A stretch of 64,000 nt of DNA from Myxococcales bacterium (GTDB lineage: Bacteria > Myxococcota_A > Polyangia > Nannocystales > Nannocystaceae), in NCBI GenBank assembly GCA_020633295.1, contig JACKDW010000006.1, positions 270,181 to 334,180 on the forward strand, given 5' to 3'. The position numbers were made by a program, and so were the translations under genes. Position 1 is the stretch's first letter. Each line of letters opens with the position of its first letter. The notes beneath the pieces were generated by a model. The model worked only from the letters and a program-made list of their open reading frames with translations, did not search any database and had not been told where the DNA came from. Below are positions 4,039 through 64,000 of the stretch, one piece after another.

Positions 4039-4754
4039 GCCCGCGGGTGTTCGCGTGCGGCCCCCACGCCACGCCGCCGGCGCTCGTACCAGGCGGTCGC
4101 CTCGTCCTCGACCGCGACGAGTCCCACTACCTCCGCCGCGTTCGGCGCGTCCGCGTGGGCGCTACCGTGGAGGTAATTGACGGCGCAGGAGCCCTGTGGT
4201 CGGCCACCCTCGCGGACGATGACGCGCGTGCCTGCGCGCTCGAGCTCGGCGAGCGACTGCCCACGATCACGCCGCCGCGCGTCGTGGATCTCGTGCTCTG
4301 TATGCCCGAGTCCGCGGCGACCCTGACCGCGCTGACTGGGGCCTCCGAGGCCGGCGCCCACTCGATCACGCTCGCGCGCTCAGCCCGCAGTTCAACCTCC
4401 CCTCCCAGCGCCGCGCGCCAATTGCGCGTGCTTCGCGCTGCGCAACGACAGTGCGGTCGCCCGCTTCCCCCTGAGGTCCACGGTCCGATGTCGCTCACGG
4501 ACGCGGTTCGCGCGCACGCCGTGAATGGGCAAGGGTTTTTTGCTTGGGCGGCCCCGGCGGTACGCGCGCAGTCGGAACGACCGAACGTGATCGGGCCCCG
4601 TGTGTGGCTCGTGGTCGGACCCGAGGGCGGCCTCGTCGAGGAGGAGGTCAACGTGCTCCGCGAGGTTGGCGCGACGGCCATCGGCCTCGGTCCGTGGGTG
4701 CTTCGAAGCGAGACCGCCGCGATCGCCGGCATCGCGCTGCTATTGAATGTTTGA
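4035..4754 (+). CDS. rsmE: 16S rRNA (uracil1498-N3)-methyltransferase RsmE
   Basis: RsmE-like sequence includes the C-terminal motif VVGPEGGLVEEEV...RSETAAIAGIALL. The GTG start overlaps the prmA stop as GTGA at 4035-4038. The ORF track shows an earlier in-frame ATG at 3999, which lies inside prmA. Confidence 0.8.
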   Translation: MSPRVFACGPHATPPALVPGGRLVLDRDESHYLRRVRRVRVGATVEVIDGAGALWSATLADDDARACALELGERLPTITPPRVVDLVLCMPESAATLTALTGASEAGAHSITLARSARSSTSPPSAARQLRVLRAAQRQCGRPLPPEVHGPMSLTDAVRAHAVNGQGFFAWAAPAVRAQSERPNVIGPRVWLVVGPEGGLVEEEVNVLREVGATAIGLGPWVLRSETAAIAGIALLLNV

Positions 4755-4810
4755 TTTATAATTACAAATATTTAGATATCATTTTTAGATGTAAAACACC
4801 TCTCCATTTT
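4741..4810. promoter_or_regulatory. AT-rich island of about 70 bp, possibly the promoter or UP element for the downstream RDD gene
   Basis: The sequence ctattgaatgtttgatttataattacaaatatttagatatcatttttagatgtaaaac is about 20% GC in a ~70% GC genome. It contains TTGATT-N17-AGATAT and TATAAT-like hexamers. Confidence 0.3.
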
Positions 4811-4818
4811 GCGCGCGT

Positions 4819-5448
4819 GTGCGGACGCTGGAACGGACGGCCAGCGTGATAGGCTGCGTCCCGGTGGGAATCCTACGTCGCGACAACAAGCGAGCGGCGC
4901 CCTGCCCTGGGTGCGATACGCCGATTGACCCGGCGATTGCGACCTCTGCGCTCGCGGCCTGCCCGACCTGCGGTCAGGCGCTCGTGCCTGTGCGCGTCGC
5001 CGGTTTCTGGCGGCGGAGCGTCGCGCTGGTGCTCGACGGGGCCATCCTGCTCGTGACCGCGGTCCCGCTTCACTACGCCGTCCTGCGTGTCACCGGCGGC
5101 TGGCTGCCGCGACGGGAGTCCTGGGGCCTCAACGGGCTGCTCGAGCTCCTGGCGGCCGACCTCGGCAACGTGCTCGTGTGGCTCGCGCCGCTGCTCGTGA
5201 TGGCGTCGCTGTACACGGTGCTGTTCACGGCCCTCATGGGTCGGACACCGGGACAGCGCGCGGTCGGGCTCGTGGTCATCTCAAGGCGCGGAGAGCGCCC
5301 ACGCTGGCACGTCGCGGTCCTTCGATTGCTGGGGTTGCTGCTCGGCGCGATTCCGGCCGGCCTCGGCGCGATTTGGATCGCGATCGACCGCGAGAAGCGC
5401 GGACTCCACGACCATATCGCGGGCACGTACGTCGTCCGGGTATCGTAG
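4819..5448 (+). CDS. RDD-family membrane protein with an N-terminal zinc-ribbon
   Basis: A CPGC...CPTCG zinc-ribbon is followed by hydrophobic segments and the RDD-type motif IAIDREKRGLHDHIAGTYVV. It starts at a GTG and the exact start is uncertain. Confidence 0.7.
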   Translation: MRTLERTASVIGCVPVGILRRDNKRAAPCPGCDTPIDPAIATSALAACPTCGQALVPVRVAGFWRRSVALVLDGAILLVTAVPLHYAVLRVTGGWLPRRESWGLNGLLELLAADLGNVLVWLAPLLVMASLYTVLFTALMGRTPGQRAVGLVVISRRGERPRWHVAVLRLLGLLLGAIPAGLGAIWIAIDREKRGLHDHIAGTYVVRVS

Positions 5449-9863: not shown

Positions 9864-11687
9864 GTGTTTGACACCATTTCGAAGGGGTTTAGGGCCGCGC
9901 GTGAGCGCCTGACGGGCGAAGCCGAGCTGACCGAAGAGTCGGTTAAAGCCGCGCTCAAGGACGTGCGGATGAGCCTGCTCGAGGCCGACGTCGAGTTCCG
10001 CGTCGTCAAGCAGTTCCTCCAGGGCGTCAAAGAGAAGGCGCTTGGGCAGCGCGTCAAGCTGGTCGCCAAGACCAAAGAGCAGACGATGCGCGTCCGCCCT
10101 GCGGACCACTTCGTGCAGATCTGTCACGACGAGCTCGTCGAGCTCATGGGGCCGGTCGACACCTCGATCCACCGCGCGAGCAAGGGCGTGACGGGGATCA
10201 TGATGGTCGGCCTGCAGGGCTCGGGAAAGACGACCTCGACCGGCAAGCTCGCGCGCAAGCTGCAGAAGGCGGGCTTCAAGGTGATGATGGTCGCGGCCGA
10301 CATCTATCGCCCGGCCGCCGTCCATCAGCTCAAGGTCCTCGGCAAGCAGCTCGACGTCCCGGTCTACAGCGAGGACGGCAAGTCCCCCGTCGAGATCTGC
10401 GCCAACGCGACCGAGAAGGCCGCGATGGAGGGCGTCGACTTCGTCCTCTATGACACCGCCGGTCGCCTCAGCGTCGACGAGCGCCTCATGCAGGAGCTCG
10501 ACGACATCAACGCCAAGGTCAACCCGCCCAACATCTTCCTCGTCATCGACGCGATGATCGGCCAGGACGCGGTCACCACCGCCAAGGCCTTCGACGAGCG
10601 GCTGACGATCTCGGGCGTCATCCTGACCAAGCTCGACGGCGACGCGCGCGGCGGCGCGGCGCTCTCGATCAAGGCCGCGACCGGCAAGCCGATCAAGTTC
10701 CTGGGCATCGGCGAGTCCCTCGACAAGCTCGAGGAGTTCCGCCCCGAGGGCCTCGCCGGGCGCATCCTCGGCATGGGCGACCTGGTCGGCCTCATGGAGG
10801 ACTTTCAGGACGTCGTCGACGAGGAGCAGGCCACGAAGGACGCCGCCAAGATGCTTGGCGGCAACTTCACGATGGATGACTTCCTCAAGCAGATCAAGAC
10901 CATCCAGAGCATGGGCTCCATGAAGGACATCATGGAGAAGATGCCGATGGCGCAGATGTTCGGCGTCGACATCCCCCAGGAGGCCCTGGAGAAGGCGGCG
11001 GACGACAAGGAGCTCGAGAAGGTCGAGGCCATCATCCGCTCGATGTCCAAGGGTGAGCGCGAGAGCCCTGAGCTGTTCCTGGTCGCCAGCGACGAGAACG
11101 CCGACACGCGCGCGCACAACAAGCTCGGGCGTCGCAACCGCCGGGCCGCGCAACGTCGCGCGCGCAAGAAGAAGGACCCGAGCAAGCTGCAGACCAAGGA
11201 CTTCGTGGCCACGCGCATCAGCCGCGTCGCCCGCGGCTGCGGTCGCCCCGAGCAGGAGATCCGCGAGCTGATCATGCGCTTCATCGCCATGCGCGACATG
11301 TTCGGGCAGTTCGGCGATCTTCTCGGCGGGATGATCCCGGGCTTCGGCCCTGGTGGCGGCGGCGGCGGAGGATCATGGCTCGATCGACTGCCGGGCGGCG
11401 GCATGCTCAAGCAGCTCAACGCGGCGCGAAAGCTGGCCCAGAACCCGCAGGCGATGCAGCAGCTGATGCAGAGCCTGGGCGGCGGCGGCGGTCTTCCCGG
11501 GATGGGCGGCATGCCCGGTATGCCCGGTATGCCTGGCATGGGCGGCATGCCCGGCATGGGCGGCATGCCCGGGCTCGGGGGGATGGGCGGCATGCCGAGC
11601 ATGCCCCAGGGCGGCGGCGCGCCGTCCGGGAAGCACGGCGGCTCCAAGCCCAAGCCCAAGTCCAAGGGCAAGAAGAAGCGCCGCTAG
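9864..11687 (+). CDS. ffh: Signal recognition particle protein Ffh, with a basic insertion and a long Gly/Met/Pro-rich C-terminal tail
   Basis: The canonical start VFDTISKGF uses GTG 9864. The NG domain carries the GTPase motifs GLQGSGKTT, DTAGR and TKLDGDARGGAALS. The M-domain signature is present (MSKGERESP...SRVARGCGRPEQEIRELIMRF). The ORF track begins earlier at 9792 in the same frame. Confidence 0.92.
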   Translation: MFDTISKGFRAARERLTGEAELTEESVKAALKDVRMSLLEADVEFRVVKQFLQGVKEKALGQRVKLVAKTKEQTMRVRPADHFVQICHDELVELMGPVDTSIHRASKGVTGIMMVGLQGSGKTTSTGKLARKLQKAGFKVMMVAADIYRPAAVHQLKVLGKQLDVPVYSEDGKSPVEICANATEKAAMEGVDFVLYDTAGRLSVDERLMQELDDINAKVNPPNIFLVIDAMIGQDAVTTAKAFDERLTISGVILTKLDGDARGGAALSIKAATGKPIKFLGIGESLDKLEEFRPEGLAGRILGMGDLVGLMEDFQDVVDEEQATKDAAKMLGGNFTMDDFLKQIKTIQSMGSMKDIMEKMPMAQMFGVDIPQEALEKAADDKELEKVEAIIRSMSKGERESPELFLVASDENADTRAHNKLGRRNRRAAQRRARKKKDPSKLQTKDFVATRISRVARGCGRPEQEIRELIMRFIAMRDMFGQFGDLLGGMIPGFGPGGGGGGGSWLDRLPGGGMLKQLNAARKLAQNPQAMQQLMQSLGGGGGLPGMGGMPGMPGMPGMGGMPGMGGMPGLGGMGGMPSMPQGGGAPSGKHGGSKPKPKSKGKKKRR

Positions 11688-40742: not shown

Positions 40743-41029
40743 GAAAAACACGTTAGAGATTTCACATCGGCATTGCAACGCCTAGAGCCCCCAAGGCACG
40801 GATTTCGACGAAACACTGGTCCCCACGACGATCCCTGGAGGGTGATTCCCCGCGGCGCGCGTCTCCACCGCGTTCGTCAAATCCTGCGTGAGCTTTGTTC
40901 CGATCATGAACGGCGTCTTCGCGCCACGACGAGACGTACAGTGCGGCCACCTCGAGCACGACATCGCCCAGCAGGTGTCCCCGGAACCATTCACGAACGA
41001 ACGACAGCTTCCGCGCGCGGTGTGATCAG

Positions 41030-41185
41030 CTCGTCTGATCGCCGAAGAGGGAAATCGGTTTAATGCCGATGCGGCTCCCGCCACTGTAAGTGGACACGAG
41101 ATCGACACGAGCCACTGGGCGCATCGCCTGGGAAGGCGTCGATCGAGGATGACCCACAAGCCAGGAGACCTGCCGCGCGCACCCC
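41030..41185 (+). ncRNA. Cobalamin (adenosylcobalamin) riboswitch
   Basis: AAGAGGGAAATCGGTTTAATGCCGATGCGGCTCCCGCCACTGTAAG...GAGCCACTGGG...TGGGAAGGCG...AAGCCAGGAGACCTGCCG matches the conserved cobalamin-riboswitch core. The B12-box AGCCAGGAGACCTGCC is at 41159-41174. It lies upstream of a TonB-dependent receptor. Confidence 0.88.
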
Positions 41186-41404
41186 TTCTCGGGCTCGTGA
41201 GCCCGACGCGGAGCCCACGGGAGTACTGGGCCGGGACCACGGGCGCGCCCGCCCGCCCGGGGAACACCCCACCTGCCCCCTCGCGCCGCGAGATTTCCCC
41301 CTCGCCGGTCGGAGGCAGGTATCGCACACCGCGCAACATCTCGGGCTTCTACGCCGCCGCGAGCGCCGCCAGACGAGCGCAGGACGATCGCTAAGAAGTG
41401 CGTC

Positions 41405-43540
41405 GTGATCGCGTGCGGGCTCGCGGCCGTGCTCACCACGACGCGCGCCGCCGCCGACGAGCGCGAGCCGACGTCACGCGACGCTCCGCCGGCGTACCGG
41501 ACCACGGTCCGTGACGCGCGCGAGGATCCCCTGGACGAGCAGCGGCGGATCGACGCGCGCGCGCCGGGCTTCGCCACGGCGATCGATCTCGAGCGCGACG
41601 TGGGGGCGCGACCCGCCGACTCGCTGGCCGAGGTGCTCGCGCGCTCGGCCGGCATCCACGTACGGTCCATGGGCGGGCTCGGCCAGTTCAGCTCGCTCTC
41701 GATCCGCGGATCGACGGGTCAGCAGGTCGCCGTCTATCTCGACGGCGTGCCCATCACCGGGAGCATGATGGGCCTGTTCAACATCGGCGACCAGCCGCTC
41801 GACGCGCTCGGGCGCGTCGAGGTCTATCGCGGCCACGTGCCGATCGTGTTCGGCGGCGCGGCGATCGGCGGCGCGGTCAACCTCGTCAGCGCGCGCGACT
41901 GCCCCAAGGACGGGGACGCGCAGCTCGAGGCGGGCGCCGGCTTCGGCTCGTTCCTCTCGCGTCAGGCCGACGTGACCGTCGCGCTCGGCCTCCCACGTCG
42001 CTTGTGTCTGCAGAGCCAGCTCAGCTACGCCGGCTCGCGCGGCGACTTCCCGTACTACGACAACGGGAGCACGCCGCTCGTGCCCGAGAACGACCAGACC
42101 TCGAGCCGCGAGAACAACCAGTACGATCGCGCGCAGGGGCGCGTCGGGCTCTCGGGCCGCCGCGGTCCGTGGCGCTTCCACGTCCAGCAGCTCGCGCTCG
42201 TCAAGCGTCAGGGGCTGCCCGGCATCGCCGAATCACCCGCCACGGTCGCCAGCCTCGACACCTACACGGCGCGCGCGCTCGGCTACGCGCGCCGCGCTGG
42301 GCTCGGCGGCCCCGGCGGCCGGCTCGAGCTCGTCGGCGCCGTCAGCTTCGAGGGCCGCGTGTTCCTCGACTCCAAGAACGAGGTCGGGCTCGGGGCCAAC
42401 AACCAGCGCACGCGCGCGGTCGATGTGTACCTCTCGCCGCGCCTGCGCCTGCCCCTGTGGACCGGCGCCTTCCTGGGCAGCGCGCTCGATCCTCGGCTCG
42501 AGTGGCTGCGCACGGACGAGCGCGTCAACCCCTCGCTCCCGCTCGGATACACGGGCGACCGCGTGCGCGCGCGCGTCGGCGGCGGCCTGGAGCTCGAGCA
42601 ATTCCTGCTCGACGATCACCTGCTCCTCGCGCCAGGCGTGCGCCTGGACGTGCTCTACAGCGAGTTCTCCGACGCGCGGGACGGCGAGGCGCGCGGCGCC
42701 GTCGACCACGCCGCGATCGCGGCGTCGCCCCGCCTGGGGGTGAAGCTCGCGCTCGCGCCGTGGCTCAGCCTGCGCAGCTCAGTGGGTCGATACTTCCGCG
42801 CGCCGACGATGTTCGAGCTGTTTAGCGACGTCGGCTACGCCGTCGGCGCCCCGACGCTCAGGCCCGAACGCGGCACGACGCTCGACGCGGGCTTCGTCTT
42901 TGATGTCGACGATCAGCCGCTGTTCACGCTGCGCGCCCACGTCGCGGCGTTTCGCACCCGGGCGCAGGACATGATCATCTGGCGGCAAGCCGGCCCGCGG
43001 ATCTCGTTCGTGAACGCGAGCGCGGCGCTCGTCGCCGGCGTCGAGAGCAGCGTCGACCTCGCTATGCTCTCCGGCGACATCGCGCTCACGGGCAACTACA
43101 CGCGGCTGTTCACCTTCAACGCCGCGCGCGGCAGCAACGAGTACGGCTTCCCGCTGATGGGCGTGCCCACGAACGACCTGTTTCTTCGGCCATCATGGGG
43201 ACACCGCTGGCGCGTCCGCAGCGTCGCGCTCGCGCCGCGCGTCTTCTACACGTACGAGCACCTCAGCGGCTACTTCCTCGATCCCTCCGGCCGCCACGAG
43301 GACGCGCCGCGCCGGTTCCACGGCCTCGGCCTCGAGCTCGCCATCTCCGAGCGCGTCAGCTTCGCGCTCGAGCTGCGCAACCTGACGAACATCAGCTTTG
43401 TGCACTGGAAGCTCTCCTTTATCAACGACACCTCCTTCGCCATCCAACAGCTCGCCGACGTCGCTGGGAACCCGCTCCCCGGTCGCAGCCTGTGGGCGAC
43501 CCTCCGCATCACGCCGACGCGCGCCCGTGCGCGCGACTGA
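41405..43540 (+). CDS. TonB-dependent outer-membrane receptor (BtuB-like), downstream of the B12 riboswitch
   Basis: A signal peptide is followed by the plug domain (DSLAEVLARSAGIHVRSMGGLGQFSSLSIRGSTGQQVAVYLDGVPI, RVEVYRGHVPIVFGGAAIGGAVNL). The long beta-barrel ends in an aromatic-rich C-terminus. Confidence 0.85.
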   Translation: MIACGLAAVLTTTRAAADEREPTSRDAPPAYRTTVRDAREDPLDEQRRIDARAPGFATAIDLERDVGARPADSLAEVLARSAGIHVRSMGGLGQFSSLSIRGSTGQQVAVYLDGVPITGSMMGLFNIGDQPLDALGRVEVYRGHVPIVFGGAAIGGAVNLVSARDCPKDGDAQLEAGAGFGSFLSRQADVTVALGLPRRLCLQSQLSYAGSRGDFPYYDNGSTPLVPENDQTSSRENNQYDRAQGRVGLSGRRGPWRFHVQQLALVKRQGLPGIAESPATVASLDTYTARALGYARRAGLGGPGGRLELVGAVSFEGRVFLDSKNEVGLGANNQRTRAVDVYLSPRLRLPLWTGAFLGSALDPRLEWLRTDERVNPSLPLGYTGDRVRARVGGGLELEQFLLDDHLLLAPGVRLDVLYSEFSDARDGEARGAVDHAAIAASPRLGVKLALAPWLSLRSSVGRYFRAPTMFELFSDVGYAVGAPTLRPERGTTLDAGFVFDVDDQPLFTLRAHVAAFRTRAQDMIIWRQAGPRISFVNASAALVAGVESSVDLAMLSGDIALTGNYTRLFTFNAARGSNEYGFPLMGVPTNDLFLRPSWGHRWRVRSVALAPRVFYTYEHLSGYFLDPSGRHEDAPRRFHGLGLELAISERVSFALELRNLTNISFVHWKLSFINDTSFAIQQLADVAGNPLPGRSLWATLRITPTRARARD

Positions 43541-43576
43541 CTCAAGGACATGAGACCCTCGCAGGAGCTGCCCATC

Positions 43577-44815
43577 ATGAACACACGCACCGCGCTGCTC
43601 ACCGCGCTCACGCTCACCGCCTGCGCGCCGAACATCCAGGACACCGGCGACGTCGTGGTCACCGACTCGGGGGACAGCGAGGGCGACACCGACGCGTCGC
43701 CCCTGCCCGGCTACCCGACGCTGACCGGCCCGTGCGTCCTCGGGACCGCGCAGCCGCGCCGGCTCGTCGTCACGACGACCGACTTCGCGACCGGGGCGGT
43801 GAGCGTCATCGACGCGGCGACCGACGCGGTCTCGGCCGACGTCGCGCTCGGCAGCACCGACGCGCTGCCCTTCGCCCACGGCGGCTACGTCTACCTGCTC
43901 CACCGCTACACGCTCGACGCGCTCGACACCCTCGACGCCGACGGCGCGTGGGCGACGCTGTCGCAGCAGGCGATCGAGGCGCCCGACGTCAGCAGCGCGA
44001 ACGCCCACCGCCTCGCCTTCTCGGACGACGGGCGCGCGTACATGACCCTGTTCGGCGCGCCCGAGATCCACGTCTACGCGCTCGACGATCCGACGCGCCC
44101 GACGCTGCTGCCCGACGCGACGATCGACATCTCCGCCGTCGCCGACGCCGACGGCAACCCGGAGGCGTCGCTCGCGGTCGTCTGCGGCGAGCTGCTGCTC
44201 GTCTCGATCGGGCGCCTCGACGAGGACGCGCTGTATCAGCCGACGACCGACCACGACGCGATCGTCCTCATCGATCGCCACACGGGCGCGCTCCACGACC
44301 TCGACGCCGACGCCGACGGGGTGCAGCCGCTGCGCCTGCAGGGTCGCTGGGCGCGACAGTGGCGGCTCGACCCCGCCGACGCGGAACGCCAGACCCTGCT
44401 GGTGCTGACGACCGGCCTCGAGCGACTCGACGTGCGGACCGGCGCCGTGTCCTGGGCGATCACGCCTGAACGCCTCGCGGCGGTCGGCGTCGCCGACGTC
44501 ATGCAGCCGCAGGCCTTCGCGCTCGCTGAGGACGGCCAGCTCGCCTACCTCGCCGCCTACACCGCAAACTTCGGCGGCGTCTCGCTGTTCGCCGGCGCGC
44601 TCGACGACGACGCGCCGCTCGTCCCGATCGCGACCGGCCTGCGCAGCGTCGAGCGGGTGCTCGAGCGCGTGGGCGACACCCTGTGGTACGGCGACAGAGC
44701 CGACAACCAGATCGGCGTCCACGCCCTCGACCTGACCACGAGCCCGCCGACGCCCCGACTCCACCTCCCGCTCGACGTGGGACTTCCTCCCTACTCCATG
44801 ATCGCGATCCCGTGA
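43577..44815 (+). CDS. Hypothetical lipoprotein (possible beta-propeller) in the B12-uptake cluster
   Basis: An AGGAG ribosome-binding site lies 9 nt upstream of the ATG at 43577. The lipobox signal is MNTRTALLTALTLTACAP. The protein is Asp/Thr/Ala-rich with repeated beta-strand-like segments. No family is recognised. Confidence 0.6.
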   Translation: MNTRTALLTALTLTACAPNIQDTGDVVVTDSGDSEGDTDASPLPGYPTLTGPCVLGTAQPRRLVVTTTDFATGAVSVIDAATDAVSADVALGSTDALPFAHGGYVYLLHRYTLDALDTLDADGAWATLSQQAIEAPDVSSANAHRLAFSDDGRAYMTLFGAPEIHVYALDDPTRPTLLPDATIDISAVADADGNPEASLAVVCGELLLVSIGRLDEDALYQPTTDHDAIVLIDRHTGALHDLDADADGVQPLRLQGRWARQWRLDPADAERQTLLVLTTGLERLDVRTGAVSWAITPERLAAVGVADVMQPQAFALAEDGQLAYLAAYTANFGGVSLFAGALDDDAPLVPIATGLRSVERVLERVGDTLWYGDRADNQIGVHALDLTTSPPTPRLHLPLDVGLPPYSMIAIP

Positions 44816-45720
44816 CCTCGAGCCCCACAGCCCCCCCGCGACGACGCGGCGCGGCCCTCGTCGCGCTCGCGCTGCTCGCCTGTAGCGGCCCCCCGCGCGC
44901 GCCCGCGTCGTCCGACGAAGAGGCGGTCGCGCGCGGCCGCACGCTGGCCTCGCAGACCGTGCTGAGCGACGAGGTCCTCTGGGAGCTCGGGCCGGCGGTG
45001 CGCGACCGCGTCGTCGCCGTGAGCGTGATGGCGGACGACCCGCGCTACAGCGCGGTCGTCGATCGCTGGCCCGAGGCCGTCCCGCGGCTCGCGGGCACGA
45101 GCGAGGCGCTGCTGGCCCTGAAGCCAGGCTACACCTTCGTCGCCAGCTTCACCTCGGCCGAGGCGCGCGCGCTGCTCGATCGGCACGGCGCGCCGACCCA
45201 CGTGCTCGACGGCTTCACCGGCTTCGCGGACTACCGAAGGCACGTCGGCGACATCGCGCGGCTCGCCGGCGCCGAGCAGGCCGGTCGCGCGCTCGTCGAG
45301 CGCTTCGACGGCGAGCTCGCGCGCCTGTCTCGCGACGTCCCGACGCCCGCAGTCGGGCTCGTCAGCTACAACGAGGGCGTCATCGCCGGCCGTGACACGA
45401 GCTTCCACGACGTCGCGCTCGCGGCCGGCTTCCGCAACATCGCGGCCGAGCACGAGATCACCGGCCACCGCTCGATCAGCGACGAGCTGCTCGTCTCGTG
45501 GGACCCGGCGGTGATCGTCATCCCCTGCGGGCCGCCGTCCTGTGACGCCAGCGAGCGCGCGTTCGCGCAGCGACCTGGCTTCTCCGCCACTCGCGCGGCG
45601 CGCGAGGGCGGCGTCATCGCGCTGCCCCCGGACAACCTCTACAGCGTCGGCCGCGGGATGATCGCGGCCGTCACGGCGCTGCGCCGTCGTCACCCCTCCC
45701 TGCGATCGCCCGCCCCGTGA
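44812..45720 (+). CDS. ABC transporter periplasmic substrate-binding lipoprotein (cobalamin / Fe-siderophore type, BtuF/FecB-like)
   Basis: The GTG start overlaps the upstream stop as GTGA. The lipobox is ALVALALLACSG. The TroA-like two-lobed binding protein resembles BtuF and FecB. Confidence 0.75.
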   Translation: MTSSPTAPPRRRGAALVALALLACSGPPRAPASSDEEAVARGRTLASQTVLSDEVLWELGPAVRDRVVAVSVMADDPRYSAVVDRWPEAVPRLAGTSEALLALKPGYTFVASFTSAEARALLDRHGAPTHVLDGFTGFADYRRHVGDIARLAGAEQAGRALVERFDGELARLSRDVPTPAVGLVSYNEGVIAGRDTSFHDVALAAGFRNIAAEHEITGHRSISDELLVSWDPAVIVIPCGPPSCDASERAFAQRPGFSATRAAREGGVIALPPDNLYSVGRGMIAAVTALRRRHPSLRSPAP

Positions 45721-46775
45721 TTGCCTCGCACCACGCCGCGCGCGCGCGGCATCCGGCCCTCGGCACGCTGCTCGCGCTCAGCTTGCTCGCCGCGCTCGCG
45801 CTCGCGGTCGTCGTCGGGCCCGGCGGCGTGGCGCCACGCGACGCGCTGCAGCTAATCGCGCGTCGGCTCGTCGGCGCGGGGCCGCCGACGGACCCCGACG
45901 TCGCGCTCGTCGACGCGATCGTGTGGTCGCTCCGCCTGCCCCGCGCGCTCCTGGCCGCGCTCGTCGGCGCGGCGCTCGGGGTCGCCGGCGCGCTCACGCA
46001 GGGCCTGTTCCGCAACCCGATGGCCGAGCCCGGCGTGCTCGGCGTGAGCTCGGGAGCCGCGGTCGCGGCTGTCCTTGGGTTCAGCCTCGGGCTCGACGCG
46101 CTCGGCCTCTGGGTGACGCCCGCGCTCTCTGCCGTCGGCGCGATCGGGATCCTGCTCGCGCTGCTCGCACTCGCGGGCACGCGCCACGGGATCGCCACGC
46201 TGCTGCTCGCCGGCGTCGCGCTCGCGGCGCTGTGCTCAGCCCTGACGACGCTGATGCTCGCGCTCGCGAGCGAGCGCTGGGATCTCGGGCTCAAGGTCGT
46301 CCGCTGGCTCATGGGCAGCTTCGAGGGCCGCAGCTGGGACCACCTCGCCGGCGCGCTCGCCCCCGCCGCGCTCGGCCTCCTCGCCGGCGCGTGGCTGCGA
46401 CGCGACCTCGACACGCTCCAGCTCGGCGCCGACACGGCCCGCTCCCTCGGCGTCCGGCTCGAGCGCGTACAGCTGCTGACGATCCTCAGCGCCGCGATCC
46501 TCGTCGGCACCTCGACTGCGGTCGCTGGCGTCATCGGCTTCGTCGGCCTCATCGTCCCCCACGTCGTGCGCATGCTCGCGGGCCCCGGGCACCGCCGCCT
46601 CCTGCCGCTCTCGGGGCTGCTCGGCGCGAGCCTGGTCGTCCTCGTCGACACCGGCTCACGCGCCTTCGGCGATCGGAGCCTCCCGCCCGGCGTCATCACG
46701 AGCCTGCTCGGCGCGCCGTTCTTCCTGTGGATCCTCCGCCGCCACGGGCGGCGGCTCGATCACCTCGATCGTTGA
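45717..46775 (+). CDS. FecCD-family ABC transporter permease (BtuC-like)
   Basis: Multiple transmembrane helices are present. FecCD signature regions are RLPRALLAALVGAALGVAGALTQGLFRNPMAEPGVLGVSSGA and LLLAGVALAALCSALTTL. The GTG start overlaps the upstream stop. Confidence 0.85.
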   Translation: MIASHHAARARHPALGTLLALSLLAALALAVVVGPGGVAPRDALQLIARRLVGAGPPTDPDVALVDAIVWSLRLPRALLAALVGAALGVAGALTQGLFRNPMAEPGVLGVSSGAAVAAVLGFSLGLDALGLWVTPALSAVGAIGILLALLALAGTRHGIATLLLAGVALAALCSALTTLMLALASERWDLGLKVVRWLMGSFEGRSWDHLAGALAPAALGLLAGAWLRRDLDTLQLGADTARSLGVRLERVQLLTILSAAILVGTSTAVAGVIGFVGLIVPHVVRMLAGPGHRRLLPLSGLLGASLVVLVDTGSRAFGDRSLPPGVITSLLGAPFFLWILRRHGRRLDHLDR

Positions 46776-46967
46776 CGACGCGCGTCGACGCCGACGACGC
46801 GGTCTGACAATTTGCATCTACAAGTTCCCGCGCGAGCGCGACGCGACCAGCGGGAACCACGACGACGCGCGTGACGTGGGTCGAATCACGTCGAGGTTCA
46901 CGACCCCCACAACGCCGTGAATTCAGCGCGCCCGCGGGCGTCCTCGGGGCGCCCGTGTGCGCGCTCC

Positions 46968-47040
46968 TTGTCCACAGCGGAGAATCGAGTTATCCACACC
47001 CGCGCCGGAGTCATCCACAGGTCGAGCCTGCTTCTCCACA
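46968..47040 (+). promoter_or_regulatory. Array of four same-orientation DnaA boxes with 21-22 bp phasing inside a 1 kb gene-free region
   Basis: The boxes are TTGTCCACA (46968), TTATCCACA (46990, a perfect consensus), TCATCCACA (47011) and TTCTCCACA (47032), each within one mismatch of TTATCCACA. A weaker CCATCCACA lies at 47298. The flanking region 46776-47806 has no convincing ORF and has AT-rich patches. Confidence 0.5.
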
Positions 47041-47806
47041 GCGCCCCACGCCCACGAAGCCCATGAAACGGTGACCTGCACTACGCCCGCGTCAACCAAG
47101 TCACCGTCGCGCTGTGCTCCGCGCTGAAGCCGCGCCCACGTCGAGTGTCGCCCTCAGGCCGTCACGATCGTCGCCGCGGACCCCCATACAGGCCAACACT
47201 CCCGATTTCCGAGCGGCCCGCCGCTCGGCGCGGGATCGACGACATGAGCGCTTCCACGCCCAATACGAGGAAAATTACGTTTCATGCGCGCTCGCGTCCA
47301 TCCACAGGGGAGATCACTCCACGCCCTGGGGATAATCGTCGACCAACCGGCCAACCGGCTTGCACTTCGGTACCAGACGTGTTGGGGGATACGAGCCTCC
47401 ACTGCATTGGCAGAGACGGTGGTGCCCGCGCGTACGCGTGTCACGCTGTACGCGTCCCGCTCACCCACAACATCTTGCGCCTCGGTGACCGCGCGCGACA
47501 CAACATGTTGTGTTCGCGCCGCGACGCCCGCCGCGCCGAACGACTTCGCACCGGCCGGCCGGAAGCGGTCCGGAGCGCAAGCGAGCGTACGCGTAAATAT
47601 GTACTTTCCGACCAATGCACAATCGTGCGTAGACGCGCCGCAATTGCGAGCATACGCGACCCTACTGGAACAAGAAAAATGCGTTTACCATGGCCGTCCG
47701 CCTGGCCCGTGGTTCCGGGGTGGCTCGAAGCACAGCCGCCCCCCAGTCGCGCAGGGAGATTGACCTCGCGACGCCCGTTACAGGCGCCCCCAGGAGACGA
47801 TCCCCT

Positions 47807-48826
47807 ATGCGCTTGCACCACATCGCGATCCTCGCCTGCTGTCTGACCGCGTGCATGAGCGACGACCTCGACGACCTCGACACCGCAGAGGATGACGTCG
47901 ACGTCGAGCTCGCCGAGAAAGACGAGGTCGAGCTGCGCGCGGACGCCGAGAACCAGGAAGTCGCCTCGCTCGCGCTCGTGGACGACGAAGCCATCGACAG
48001 CGAGGGAGACACCCACGCGGGCGGCGACCTCGAGGACGAGGACGGCGACGAGGCCCTGGACGAGGACGCGCTCGCGGCGGCGCTCGACTTCGAGTACCGC
48101 GAGTGCGTGCACGCGCTCGACAGCAAGCGCCCCAAGCTGACGAAAGAGACGCAGCAGCGGACCAAGGACATCATCGCCCACGTCCACAAGCGCATGAAGG
48201 CGTCCCGCGGCTTCCGCAAGCTGCTGATGCTCGTCGCGCTGCGCGAGGCCAGCTACCAGAGCGGCCTCGTGCACCGCCTCCAGCCCGACATCGAGGGCAG
48301 CCACAGCGCGTGGCGCAAGATGAAGGACCGCTACCCCGACAACCCCTACGCCGAGGATCCCAACCTCTGGCAGACCTACGGGCTGTTCGGGATGAACTCG
48401 AATTACTTCACGATGCTGTGGAGCAAGCAGGCCGACCCGCGCGTGCTCTGCGACCCGATCGTCGACGTGCTCGTCTATCGCCGCGCGGCCGAGCGCGCGC
48501 TGCGGAAGCTCAACGGCACCATCAAGTGCAAGAACGCCGACGGCGAGACCTACGACTTCCGCACGACGCCGACGTGGGCGACGATCCACCGCGCGGTCAA
48601 CGGCGGCAAGCTGTGCCCCTCCAAGCACGAGAACCAGGCCGCGATCATGCGCAAGTACTTCAACGCGCGCGCGATCAAGAAGGGCCTCGACGCGGATGAG
48701 CGCGTGACGTCGAAGATGCTCGGCGTCGAGCCCGACCGCGGCCTCGACGGCGAGGTGTGGGAGACGCAGGAGGAGATGGTCATGGGCCTTTGGGAGGAGT
48801 TCGAGGCCCTCGCCGAGGAGAGCTAG
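47807..48826 (+). CDS. Hypothetical lipoprotein with an acidic N-terminal region, possibly a lytic-transglycosylase/lysozyme-like fold
   Basis: An AGGAGA ribosome-binding site lies 7 nt before the ATG at 47807. The lipobox is MRLHHIAILACCLTAC. An Asp/Glu-rich region follows. The C-terminal domain has SLT-like motifs (LREASYQSGL, GLFGMN, YF). The fold assignment is tentative. Confidence 0.6.
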   Translation: MRLHHIAILACCLTACMSDDLDDLDTAEDDVDVELAEKDEVELRADAENQEVASLALVDDEAIDSEGDTHAGGDLEDEDGDEALDEDALAAALDFEYRECVHALDSKRPKLTKETQQRTKDIIAHVHKRMKASRGFRKLLMLVALREASYQSGLVHRLQPDIEGSHSAWRKMKDRYPDNPYAEDPNLWQTYGLFGMNSNYFTMLWSKQADPRVLCDPIVDVLVYRRAAERALRKLNGTIKCKNADGETYDFRTTPTWATIHRAVNGGKLCPSKHENQAAIMRKYFNARAIKKGLDADERVTSKMLGVEPDRGLDGEVWETQEEMVMGLWEEFEALAEES

Positions 48827-52577: not shown

Positions 52578-52624
52578 GAATCCACAGGAGCGACCTGCCA
52601 TCCACAGGGAGAACTTGTGGATAA
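52578..52624. promoter_or_regulatory. Second DnaA-box-like cluster: two plus-strand near-boxes and one perfect minus-strand TTATCCACA forming an inverted pair
   Basis: GAATCCACA (52578) and CCATCCACA (52598) lie on the plus strand. TGTGGATAA (52616-52624) is a perfect DnaA box on the minus strand. The extended motif CATCCACAGGGAG is shared with sites at 47011 and 47298. Confidence 0.35.
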
Positions 52625-59556: not shown

Positions 59557-59757
59557 CGCGATCGGGCGCCCGCGCGCGCCCCCACGCGTCCACGCGCAAC
59601 CGCGCGCGGCCCCGCGTGAATTCGCGCCGCGTCACGGGCGTGATCGAGATCTCTGGAACGCGGCCTGGCGGCGAAGTCTCAATGGATAACTGGCGCCGCG
59701 CGGCCTGACCGGGATAGGGTAAGTCCGCCGCGGTACCAACCGCAGCAGGAGTTGCAC

Positions 59758-60426
59758 ATGTCACGCAGGGTTCGCCGCCGTACACAACGCCGTTCTCCAG
59801 TCCGCAAGGCGCTCCAGATCGTCACCGCGGCCGCGACGCTCCTCGGCACCTACGCCTACTCCCAGGACGCCGAGGCCGCAGTACCGCGGATTCTCCGCGA
59901 AGGGACCCGGGCGCTCTACTTCAACTTTGGCGCCGGCGGCGATTGGCACATCTACCACCGGTACTACGCCGACTACCCGGGTCGCTACTACAACTGGAGT
60001 CGCTTTCGCCTCCACCAGGAGTTCGGCGGCCACTTCCGCGGCGACGCGTCAGGCCCCGCGCTGGCGATCGTCACGCAGGAGGGCTTCCCGCGCTACCGCG
60101 GCTACTACGGCTACGGCGGCGGCGACTTCGCGTTCCAGGTCAAGGGCAAGTTCCTCTGGGACATCCAGGTCAAGAAGGGGCTCGGCTTCTACATCTCGCC
60201 CTTCGGCACGGTCGGCTGGGCGGGCTGGTTCGGCGACGCCTACTGGGCCCGCACCTACGGCTACCGCCACAGCGCGACGACGTCCGTCGGCGTGACCGCG
60301 AAGCTGATGCTCGATGATCGCTGGGTCGTCTGGCTGCAGGTCCCGACCGTCGAGTTCTTCTTCAATAGCCGCGACTGGTACGCGCGCTTCGGCTTCTTCA
60401 CGGGCGTCGGCGTCACCTTCGGATAA
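59758..60426 (+). CDS. Small secreted beta-rich protein, possibly an outer-membrane beta-barrel
   Basis: An AGGAG ribosome-binding site lies 7 nt before the ATG at 59758. The signal peptide is …ALQIVTAAATLLGTYAYSQDAEA. Alternating aromatic/Gly-rich strands end in GVGVTFG. Confidence 0.5.
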   Translation: MSRRVRRRTQRRSPVRKALQIVTAAATLLGTYAYSQDAEAAVPRILREGTRALYFNFGAGGDWHIYHRYYADYPGRYYNWSRFRLHQEFGGHFRGDASGPALAIVTQEGFPRYRGYYGYGGGDFAFQVKGKFLWDIQVKKGLGFYISPFGTVGWAGWFGDAYWARTYGYRHSATTSVGVTAKLMLDDRWVVWLQVPTVEFFFNSRDWYARFGFFTGVGVTFG

Positions 60427-63542: not shown

Positions 63543-63607
63543 ACGCGCGCTGACTCGCTTGCTGTGATGGCGGGTTGCGTTACACTGCGCCGACTTGGCG
63601 TCCGCCT

Positions 63608-64000
63608 ATGAGTGACGAGTCCGCGACAACACCCGAGCCGGCGTCCTCGCCGTCCGCTCCCGCTCCCCCCGACCCCGCGCGCTCCGGTCGCGCGGTCGCC
63701 GTCGCGCTCGCGGCCGCGCTCTCGCTGGGCCTCGACCTCTGGACCAAGCAGTGGGCGTGGAACAACCTCCACCTGCCCAACAAGCGCATCACGGTCATCG
63801 AGAAGTTCTTCTACTTCGACTTCAGCTTCAACACGGGCGCCGCCTTCGGCTTCCTCGAGGGCACCGGCTACGCGCGCCCGCTGTTCATCGTCATCACCGT
63901 GTTGACGGTGCTGTACATGCTCAACATGGTCCGCACCCTGCCGACCCGGCGGCTGTACGGCTTCATCGCCATCGGCCTCATCATCGGCGGGGCGCTCGGC
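63608..64000 (+). CDS. lspA: Lipoprotein signal peptidase (signal peptidase II), 3' partial; it runs off the window
   Basis: The ATG at 63608 opens a frame with no stop before the window end. The LspA motif FNTGAAFGF and the expected transmembrane segments are present. It is absent from the ORF track only because no stop is reached. It lies next to lgt. Confidence 0.8.
   Translation, partial: MSDESATTPEPASSPSAPAPPDPARSGRAVAVALAAALSLGLDLWTKQWAWNNLHLPNKRITVIEKFFYFDFSFNTGAAFGFLEGTGYARPLFIVITVLTVLYMLNMVRTLPTRRLYGFIAIGLIIGGALG

Follow-up and report, generated by a model that had tools for sequence, protein, structure and literature searches.

A two-turn-phased array of DnaA-box-like sites in one subclade of Nannocystaceae: a candidate DnaA-box cluster outside the replication origin

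INTRODUCTION

Outside oriC, Bacillus subtilis carries six clusters of DnaA boxes (DBCs) in intergenic regions; they bind DnaA, regulate neighbouring genes and restrain initiation (PMC3245932). The Escherichia coli loci datA, DARS1 and DARS2 are non-coding chromosomal sites with few DnaA boxes, on which DnaA oligomers assemble and change the amount of active initiator (PMC5742627, PMC4585315). In the left half of E. coli oriC the boxes R1, R5M, tau2, I1 and I2 are co-oriented and helically phased, in 11-bp steps of a 9-mer plus 2 bp (PMC10316083), and the basal unwinding system combines tandem DnaA boxes with a spacer of at most 16 bp and at least three DnaA-trios (PMC8287927). A limited full-text literature search found no published description of an extra-origin DnaA-box cluster in Myxococcota.

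Here we analyse a 64-kb stretch of DNA from a member of the Nannocystaceae (the window). An earlier reading, made without database searches and called here the sequence-only reading, had noted four phased DnaA-box-like 9-mers in a gene-free gap of the window, and had proposed the gap as a candidate replication origin or as a DnaA-titration or regulatory locus.

Like the B. subtilis DBCs, the array is intergenic, has several DnaA boxes and apparently lies away from the origin (PMC3245932). Those clusters, however, were recognized through DnaA ChIP and the phenotypes of deletions, and the majority are near oriC, whereas the array is known from its sequence alone and has only four strong boxes, in strict two-turn phasing. 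The datA locus requires an IHF site between its boxes, and DARS boxes I and II are oppositely oriented; the array shares with these loci a non-coding chromosomal setting and a small number of boxes, but it is strictly co-oriented and has no sequence homology to them. The IHF consensus WATCAANNNNTTR has no match in the window, which is weak evidence, since this E. coli-type consensus may not be the myxobacterial one. Co-orientation and helical phase, which would direct head-to-tail DnaA assembly, are shared with the left half of oriC (PMC10316083), whose 11-bp step recurs in the arrays of two relatives. In contrast, the oriC boxes adjoin both an unwinding element rich in AT and an IHF site, at the position of the skew switch. 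None of these features was found here, and the oriC boxes are one turn apart where those of the window are two. The tandem co-oriented boxes also recall the basal unwinding system, but a trio run on the correct side is missing and the adjoining DNA is 70% GC. Plasmid iteron origins (P1, F, RK2 and pSC101 type) have direct repeats with a period of ~22 bp, as here; iterons, however, are conserved over their full length and are read by a Rep protein encoded nearby, whereas here only the DnaA-box 9-mer is conserved.

RESULTS

The four-box array

A position check found the four 9-mers where the sequence-only reading had placed them, all on the plus strand (Table 1), with start-to-start intervals of 22, 21 and 21 bp and with one perfect match beside three sites of one mismatch, as it had said. 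The array is far above chance: the 64-kb window holds 11 sites within one mismatch of TTATCCACA, compared with 1.36 in dinucleotide-preserving shuffles, and none of 100 such shuffles reached 11. Density in the gap, with four strong and up to three weaker boxes in 1031 bp, is 6.8 per kb versus 0.76 per kb elsewhere in the window. It had been conceded that the motif might turn out to be a dispersed repeat. In a search space of 456,957 bases (the window and related loci), co-oriented pairs of boxes (at most one mismatch each, 9-24 bp apart) were found only in this intergenic region, of the window and of the related loci L004 and L005, and the array is therefore not a dispersed repeat. Tandem Repeats Finder did not call the array, because the likeness between its units is limited to the 9-mers.

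All four boxes share T4-C5-C6-A7-C8-A9, and the variable positions are 2-3. Box 2 is a perfect E. coli-type DnaA box, and the sequence of box 1, TTGTCCACA, is what we take to be the high-GC (Streptomyces-type) consensus. The base that follows the 9-mer is G or C (TCCACAG three times, TCCACAC once). The DnaA-box call of the sequence-only reading thus fits in box match, co-orientation, helical phase and purifying selection, with DnaA as the presumed binding protein.

Table 1. Coordinates of the boxes, neighbouring elements and flanking genes in the window
Feature	Position	Strand	Remarks
FecCD/BtuC-type permease, last gene of the B12 uptake operon	45717..46775	+	Pfam FecCD, E=3e-84; upstream flank of the gap
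Conserved block TTTGCATCTACAAG	46811..46824	+	~145 bp upstream of box 1; related copies T.GCA..TACAA in L004, L005, L006 and L016
GC-rich hairpin, 19-nt arms, 3-nt loop	46925..46965	+	Inverted repeat; ends 2 nt before box 1
DnaA-box-like site 1	46968..46976	+	TTGTCCACA, 1 mismatch; identical in L004 and L005
DnaA-box-like site 2	46990..46998	+	TTATCCACA, perfect consensus; identical in L004 and L005
DnaA-box-like site 3	47011..47019	+	TCATCCACA, 1 mismatch; identical in L004, lost in L005
DnaA-box-like site 4	47032..47040	+	TTCTCCACA, 1 mismatch; identical in L004, lost in L005
Convergent weak box-like 9-mers CCATCCACA (+) and TTATCCCCA (-)	47298..47335		Flank the core GGGAGATC(A/T)C
Two copies of CACAACAT(C/G)TTG, palindromic core CAACATGTTG	47466..47512	+	Direct repeat, copies 33 bp apart
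Promoter-like block CTACTG..AAATGCGTTTACCATGGCCGTCCGCCTGG	47658..47707	+	Conserved family-wide in alignments; ~120 nt before the start codon
Downstream gene, lipoprotein (lipobox LTAC) with lysozyme-like / lytic-transglycosylase-like fold	47807..48826	+	Without Pfam family
Isolated second perfect TTATCCACA	52616..52624	-	Next large intergenic region, 4.8 kb downstream; may be another DnaA site

Conservation and distribution in relatives

Five loci carry an array: the window, L004, L005, L006 and L016. Between the window and L004 (81% identical) the box bases are identical at 36 of 36 positions and the spacer bases at 20 of 37 (Fisher p=1.4e-6). By this comparison the array is kept by selection, whose targets are the 9-mers rather than the repeat unit. 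L005 retains boxes 1 and 2, 22 bp apart. In the same region L016 has co-oriented boxes at 5275, 5286, 5330, 5341 and 5352, and L006 at 5296, 5307, 5350 and 5361, so that L006 and L016 (62% GC) are carriers with 11-bp steps. Among the carriers orientation and helical phase are thus kept while spacing varies between 11 and 21-22 bp, as an oligomer on one DNA face predicts. In each of the five loci, this intergenic region has 2-9 times the density of boxes (at most two mismatches) seen in the remainder of the locus. Among the 19 boxes of the five loci, T at positions 1-2 is retained in most, and variation falls at positions 2-3, plus position 5 in the lower-GC genomes.

Array carriers other than these five were not found, and all five belong to one clade, which also includes the box-less L007. 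A further 18 genome loci and 26 metagenome loci of Nannocystaceae, orthologous to this one, have no box cluster. On this survey the carriers are a small group of uncultured myxobacteria, one subclade, and such a clade-restricted array fits the finding that the genes downstream of the B. subtilis DBCs differ from species to species (PMC3245932). The layout of the orthologous locus in other Nannocystaceae is the B12-uptake operon, a gap, the lytic-transglycosylase-like gene and, where checked, fabH, and Pfam confirmed that the flanking genes are shared in three box-less loci (L008, L012 and L023). In Nannocystis the intergenic region is only ~400 bp long, without the extra ~600 bp that bear the array. 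An unbiased search for phased hexamers other than the boxes, upstream of the gene in box-less relatives, yielded only GC-rich coding noise and CAACATGTTG-type elements.

The non-coding gap and its other elements

At 1031 bp the gap (46776-47806) is the longest intergenic stretch in the window, as had been noted, the next being 744 and 626 bp. Several descriptions of its composition held in part. The GC dip is present but modest (65.8% versus 70.2% for the window). The AT-rich patches were likewise confirmed, but when stretches of the window are ordered from the least stable upwards they take only about places 5 to 11; first place goes to 4746-4800, 42 kb from the array. The minus-strand ORF 47154-47615 does have a low GC3 (0.66, compared with 0.80-0.99 in likely genes as picked by a composition filter), but it is not the only ORF in the gap, where ORF GC3 is ~0.62-0.66. 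Six-frame tblastn against relatives revealed no frame-specific conservation of the gap, matching all frames equally, and the gap is therefore not coding. Rfam gave chance-level matches only, in the gap of the window (gathering and permissive thresholds) and in ten related loci (gathering threshold); a tRNA/tmRNA scan found none, and neither sigma-70 promoters nor intrinsic terminators were called in the gap.

On the upstream side, the B12 uptake operon is controlled by a cobalamin riboswitch (41001-41191, 124 bits), and the permease that ends it also flanks the gap in L004, L006, L016 and L008. The hairpin before box 1 is probably the terminator of this operon, which the terminator scan missed because it has no T-run; by RNA folding, L004 and L005 each have a strong counterpart of different sequence immediately 5' of box 1. 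Further downstream, the GAGATC core between the convergent 9-mers is conserved in all five array-bearing loci; the 9-mers themselves are degraded in L004, so their status as DnaA boxes is doubtful. The CACAACAT(C/G)TTG element, ~340 nt before the start codon, is kept across Nannocystaceae, including loci without DnaA boxes. The pair lies outside the DnaA array and looks like an operator for a dimeric regulator of the downstream gene. The promoter-like block reads TACCAT in the window and TATGAT in distant loci; the sigma-70 scan did not call it, and its assignment as a promoter is therefore tentative. Sigma-54 promoters at the TTGCA blocks were considered and rejected, the GG-to-GC spacing being off by one or the GG missing. 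The start codon of the downstream gene, previously put at 47808, is corrected to 47807.

A probable DnaA-box cluster outside the origin

On balance we favour reading the array as a DnaA-box cluster outside the origin, kin to the B. subtilis DBCs, E. coli datA and the Streptomyces DnaA-box cluster. From the motifs, their phasing, their conservation and the selection on the 9-mers, all directly observed, we infer DnaA as the binding protein, cooperative binding and the consequences downstream of it. Initiator DnaA would bind the four co-oriented 9-mers through its C-terminal domain, and since the three intervals add up to 64 bp, or two helical turns each at 10.7 bp per turn, the protomers would all lie on one face of the DNA. 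The gaps between boxes, at 12-13 bp, are wider than the 2-bp gaps of E. coli oriC arrays, and cooperativity may for that reason depend on the flexible N-terminal domain, or on additional protomers in the gaps. A stable nucleoprotein complex would form just past the terminator-like hairpin of the B12 operon and ~650 bp upstream of the promoter-like block of the lipoprotein gene. Its probable effect would be either to sequester or inactivate some of the cell's DnaA or to tie the transcription of a neighbouring gene to DnaA status, and we consider the two about evenly split.

Some points sit less easily with a DnaA-box cluster. The ~650 bp between the array and the nearest promoter-like block are far for direct transcriptional control, the 21-22 bp spacing differs from the 11-bp spacing that permits direct AAA+ contacts, and another protein with a similar recognition sequence is possible.

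The five genomes amount to a natural experiment, in which orientation and phase are kept while number and spacing (11 versus 21-22 bp) vary, and which shows the geometric features that selection sees. The 75-bp array is also a defined substrate on which to study DnaA cooperation over two helical turns. If DnaA binds, both B12 uptake and the cell-wall-cleaving lipoprotein might, speculatively, be suspected of coupling to the replication cycle, the former because class II ribonucleotide reductase uses B12 as its cofactor.

Possible binding by another protein

It is conceivable, though unlikely, that the TCCACA repeats are sites of some other protein, for example an OmpR/PhoB-type response regulator or a regulator of B12 uptake or of the cell wall, and resemble DnaA boxes by coincidence. 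OmpR/PhoB-type response regulators bind direct repeats at 10-11 bp periodicity, and the head-to-tail pairs and triplets at 11 bp in L006 and L016 have this classical geometry; the 21-22 bp spacing in the other three genomes, however, is ill-suited to a tandem response-regulator dimer. The G or C after the 9-mer gives TCCACAG-type box ends that recall the TCACAGC-type direct repeats of actinobacterial PhoP and MtrA, but conservation covers an entire 9-mer with the DnaA-box match, and the four include one exact E. coli consensus and one TTGTCCACA. The retention of T at positions 1-2 in most of the boxes and the placing of their variation also speak for DnaA, which tolerates changes at positions 3 and 5. 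Myxobacteria encode very many response regulators and the region clearly bears sites for further factors; against this, such paired sites occur nowhere else in 457 kb of related sequence, a sample too small to exclude a small regulon.

A CarH-type operator, considered because of the B12 context, was rejected. Such operators are 11-bp repeats of the form nAnnTnnACAn; every box has T where position 2 would have to be A, and the boxes recur at 21-22 bp.

Is the array the replication origin?

We regard it as very improbable that this clade has its chromosomal origin, or an additional one, in this region, relocated to an intergenic site far from dnaA and dnaN. Such an origin would consist of a two-turn-phased DnaA array between the B12-uptake operon and the lytic-transglycosylase-like gene, without a canonical unwinding module. 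It would find some favour in the co-oriented phased boxes within the longest non-coding stretch, in several conserved non-coding blocks and a few AT-richer patches, and in the switch of gene orientation from minus to plus ~6 kb upstream of the array, near 41 kb. Origins distant from dnaA are also known, that of Sorangium cellulosum being predicted beside dnaN and not dnaA (PMC2650636).

The skew tells otherwise. The sequence-only reading had proposed to look for an inflection of GC skew at the array; over the 64 kb of the window, skew is negative on both sides of it without a change of sign, and cumulative skew falls from -1.26 (46-48 kb) to -1.93 (62-64 kb), with no minimum there. Were an origin to separate them, minus-strand genes to the left and plus-strand genes to the right should have equal coding-strand GC skew at fourfold sites; they have -0.024 and -0.237, respectively (p=9e-5), a contrast to which differences in gene expression could add. 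Among plus-strand genes alone, the left-hand set (-0.143) shows no difference from the right-hand set (p=0.35), which fits a single direction of replication.

Nor is there a recognizable unwinding element beside the boxes. The 210 bp after box 4, where it would be expected (3' of the boxes on the TTATCCACA strand), are 70% GC, and the nearest AT-richer patch (47262-47285) is ~220 bp from the boxes and ranks 6th in the window. DnaA-trio runs were sought after all 55 boxes with at most two mismatches, as NAN repeated at least three times on the trio strand, within 16 bp of the box and on the correct side (pattern from PMC8287927); the lone match in the region is the spacer that runs into box 4.

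The absence of dnaA and dnaN from the neighbourhood, remarked on earlier, was borne out by Pfam scans of 45 of the 46 likely genes in the window (the remaining one is not a flanking gene), the fragment 63575-64000 and the ORF 59752-60426 included, and parS was not found in the 64-kb window at up to three mismatches. Linkage of dnaA, dnaN and parS to the origin is not universal (E. coli, Caulobacter). Because the array is missing in the rest of the family, the origin would moreover have had to move here in one subclade. Skew, unwinding element, DnaA-trios, dnaA/dnaN/parS and family-wide position thus all go against the origin half of the earlier proposal, and support a non-origin status, short of proof at the 64-kb scale. 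With its candidacy as an origin unsupported, the array is unfit for placing the origin in these draft genomes. The titration or regulatory locus is the half left standing, and one that we infer.

Remnants and isolated sites

It is equally hard to credit that the array is a functionless remnant (a decayed tandem duplication, a fragment of plasmid-type iterons or the relic of a lost gene), for although the extra ~600 bp that bear it are missing in Nannocystis and a 21-22 bp period is typical of plasmid iterons, the perfectly conserved 9-mers amid spacers diverged between the window and L004 are the reverse of what neutral decay would leave, iterons show conservation along all of their 17-22 bp as these units do not, phase and orientation are kept in genomes of differing GC content, and frame-specific conservation is not seen in the gap. 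A plasmid origin was rejected after blastn found no match among 72,556 plasmids and no rep gene was found nearby. At the corresponding place L008 and L012 have a 508-aa gene on the minus strand, and since no similarity to it was found, a relic of that gene was rejected as well.

Near the isolated perfect site in the next large intergenic region, weaker plus-strand boxes at 52578 and 52598 are not conserved; the TGTGGATAAC of the perfect site and the 15 bases that follow it are kept in L004.

DnaA-box array

The four co-oriented 9-mers described in the sequence-only reading are confirmed (table), with starts 22, 21 and 21 bp apart. Allowing up to one mismatch, TTATCCACA occurs 11 times in the window; the expectation from 100 dinucleotide-preserving shuffles of the whole window is 1.36, and none of them reached 11. 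Similarity between array units is confined to the 9-mer, and the array was not called by Tandem Repeats Finder.

The setting had also been described correctly: no intergenic stretch of the window is longer than the gap at 46776-47806, which is also of lower GC content (65.8% versus 70.2% for the window). In the ORFs within it, GC is flat across codon positions at about 0.62-0.66, whereas GC3 is 0.80-0.99 in the likely genes. Six-frame comparison with relatives found no frame-specific conservation there, and searches for Rfam families, tRNAs and consensus promoters or terminators called nothing in the gap.

Features of the array, its gap and the flanking genes
Feature	Position	Strand	Remarks
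Cobalamin riboswitch	41001-41191		124 bits; upstream of gap
Riboswitch-controlled operon	41001-46775		TonB-dependent receptor, 421-aa protein without Pfam family, BtuF-like periplasmic binding protein, BtuC-like FecCD permease
Subclade-specific block TTTGCATCTACAAG	46811-46824
GC hairpin	46925-46965		ends 2 nt 5' of box 1; no T-run
Box 1 TTGTCCACA	start 46968	+	9-mer
Box 2 TTATCCACA	start 46990	+	9-mer
Box 3 TCATCCACA	start 47011	+	9-mer
Box 4 TTCTCCACA	start 47032	+	9-mer
Subclade-specific block GAGGAAAATTACGTTTCATG	47267-47286
Facing pair CCATCCACAGGGGAGA ... TGGGGATAA	47298-47335
Subclade-specific block GGGAGATC(A/T)C	47307-47317
Subclade-specific block, exact tandem CCAACCGG CCAACCGG, then CTTG	47343-47359
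Two CACAACAT(C/G)TTG elements	47466-47512		palindromic core CAACATGTTG; 33 bp apart; about 340 nt before downstream gene start
Promoter-like block	47658-47707		nearer downstream gene
Downstream gene	ATG at 47807		AGGAGA Shine-Dalgarno; 339-aa lytic-transglycosylase-like product, no Pfam family
Isolated perfect box TTATCCACA	52616-52624	-	4.8 kb downstream, in next large intergenic region, upstream of 515-aa gene

Conservation among relatives

The downstream gene led to 23 related loci among species-representative genomes and a further 26 in metagenomes; those named are Nannocystaceae or Myxococcales, Nannocystis species among them. Locus L004 (protein identity to the window 81%) has all four boxes with spacing unchanged, and L005 (62%) retains boxes 1 and 2, 22 bp apart. 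L006 and L016 (each 59% identity and 62% GC) have co-oriented boxes at 5296, 5307, 5350 and 5361 and at 5275, 5286, 5330, 5341 and 5352, respectively, with all inter-box steps 11 bp or near a multiple of 11. Between the window and L004, 36/36 box bases are identical versus 20/37 spacer bases (Fisher p=1.4e-6). The 19 boxes from the five genomes keep TT.TCCACA, varying at positions 2-3 and, in the lower-GC genomes, at 5. In each of the five loci, boxes are 2 to 9 times denser in this intergenic region than in the remaining sequence.

In a tree of the downstream protein the five array-bearing loci fall in one clade, which also includes L007, a divergent box-less copy from the same bin as L004. 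The box cluster is absent from every other locus among the 23 genome and 26 metagenome loci examined, and 457 kb of related sequence contains no close co-oriented pair of good boxes elsewhere. From this pattern we judge the array to be real, selected and clade-specific rather than a dispersed repeat, the alternative that the sequence-only reading had allowed for.

The bin in question, MAG Co_bin.371, has two lytic-transglycosylase-like gene copies on different contigs (L004 and L007, whose products share 81% and 60% identity with the window protein), reflecting either a paralogue or a mixed bin; the L007 copy is without any of the upstream motifs. The B12-operon flank was confirmed by Pfam in L008, L012 and L023, as was fabH downstream in L004. 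In Nannocystis the intergenic region measures no more than about 400 bp. The window derives from an uncultured myxobacterium, and an identical 9.4-kb contig is present in GCA_020431325.1.

Interpretation of the array

We read the array as, more likely than not, an extra-origin DnaA-box cluster, a fresh example of an already known type of element. The motif is a 9-mer rather than a hexamer, and its copies include the exact E. coli consensus as well as TTGTCCACA, the Streptomyces-type DnaA-box consensus. The boxes stay in phase while their spacing varies between 11 and 21-22 bp, which speaks for proteins arrayed along a single face of the DNA. In E. coli oriC, co-orientation with helical phasing is what directs head-to-tail DnaA assembly across the left half (PMC10316083). 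B. subtilis has six intergenic DnaA-box clusters outside oriC that bind DnaA, regulate their neighbours and jointly restrain initiation, and clusters of this type adjoin different genes, on the upstream side, in different species (PMC3245932), matching the clade-restricted occurrence of the array. The predicted DnaA complex may hold or inactivate DnaA; standing between the B12 operon and the lytic-transglycosylase-like gene, it may also serve as a barrier or regulator.

The isolated box at 52616-52624 and the ACCTACATCG following it are conserved in L004 (about 10560-10580), a hint that more than one nearby promoter region may make use of DnaA boxes. Within 52578-52624 this box faces CCATCCACAGGGAGA, in the arrangement of the facing pair in the gap.

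That the sites belong to a different protein is unlikely, if still worth weighing: the head-to-tail 11-bp pairs in L006 and L016 would suit an OmpR/PhoB-type regulator as well.

The sequence-only interpretation was half right. Its DnaA-related site is borne out by the 9-mer motif and its conservation; the site is very probably not a replication origin, a reading to which we give very little credence, all origin tests run being negative. No GC-skew inflection appeared over the 64 kb: skew is below zero to the left and to the right of the array, and cumulative skew, which stands at -1.26 at 46-48 kb, falls without a minimum and reaches -1.93 where the window ends. Coding-strand GC skew at fourfold-degenerate third positions is -0.024 for 20 minus-strand genes left of the site versus -0.237 for 13 plus-strand genes right of it (Mann-Whitney p=9e-5), whereas an origin between the two groups would make both leading-strand, with equal skew expected. 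Left plus-strand genes (-0.143) do not differ from right plus-strand genes (p=0.35), so a single replication direction across the site fits. This evidence is moderate, since 64 kb is a short span and differences in gene expression may add to the contrast.

In the E. coli oriC sequence the 13-mers are located 5' of R1 when this is read as TGTGGATAA. By analogy, an unwinding element would be expected beyond the 3' end of the boxes as read on the TTATCCACA strand; that side of the array is 210 bp at 70% GC. No run of at least three trios follows any box by the published search pattern (PMC8287927), and no parS was found in the window with up to three mismatches allowed. The same locus is box-less in sister genera, so an origin would have had to move here. 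As had been noted, dnaA and dnaN are not nearby, neither domain occurring in any scanned window gene. The Sorangium origin is predicted next to dnaN (PMC2650636), and origins away from dnaA exist, so absent dnaA linkage alone decides nothing.

A neutral remnant or plasmid-type iterons are scarcely plausible, since the 9-mers are perfectly conserved while the spacers diverged, and no rep gene, plasmid similarity or gene remnants were found.

Other elements in the gap

We read the hairpin before box 1 as a putative terminator of the B12 operon. Strong hairpins directly 5' of the first box also occur in L004 (about 5105-5145) and L005 (about 5126-5170), equivalent in structure and different in sequence; if these hairpins without T-run are terminators, their sole U-rich stretch would come from the first box (TTGT...).

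The CACAACAT(C/G)TTG pair, probably the operator of a dimeric regulator, is conserved across the Nannocystaceae (L008-L014, L019, L022, L024, L025, L027-L031, L033, L036, L040, L042 and L043). Both it and the promoter-like block are kept family-wide, in genomes without DnaA boxes as well. We assign the two to control of the downstream gene, not to the array. Some loci have an extra CACAACAT(C/G)TTG copy 2-4 kb downstream. At 47343-47359, the site of the tandem CCAACCGG, the motif GCCAACCGG.TTG is kept in L004, L006 and L016, not in L005.

Neighbouring genes

The FecCD permease gene is last in its operon, ending at 46775; no ABC ATPase gene (btuD) was found in the operon, the window, L004, L006 or L016. 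The downstream protein carries a lipobox (LTAC), and its E-S-x-Q motif is invariant. Its AlphaFold model (mean pLDDT 71.5) has a confident C-terminal domain, and neither Foldseek nor sequence search found anything significant in PDB.

Elsewhere the window carries ordinary core-chromosome genes (sdhAB, prmA, ffh, rpoN-hpf-hprK-ptsHI, pyrG, accC, rpoZ, fabH, mdh, sucCD, lgt, lspA). Genes are mostly on the minus strand at 12029-40778, except two plus-strand genes at 18.4-20.1 kb, and all on the plus strand from 41.4 kb (41405) to the window end (64000). With the plus strand rich in C over its whole length, transcription in one of these two orientation blocks would run head-on to replication. At 4746-4800 lies about 55 bp of nearly pure A+T (AATGTTTGATTTATAATTACAAATATTTAGATATCATTTTTAGATGTAAAA) within a 70% GC genome, the least stable DNA of the whole window by a wide margin. 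This stretch has no DnaA boxes close by, includes TTGATT/TATAAT-like hexamers and is flanked by genes for an RsmE-like methyltransferase and an RDD-family protein.
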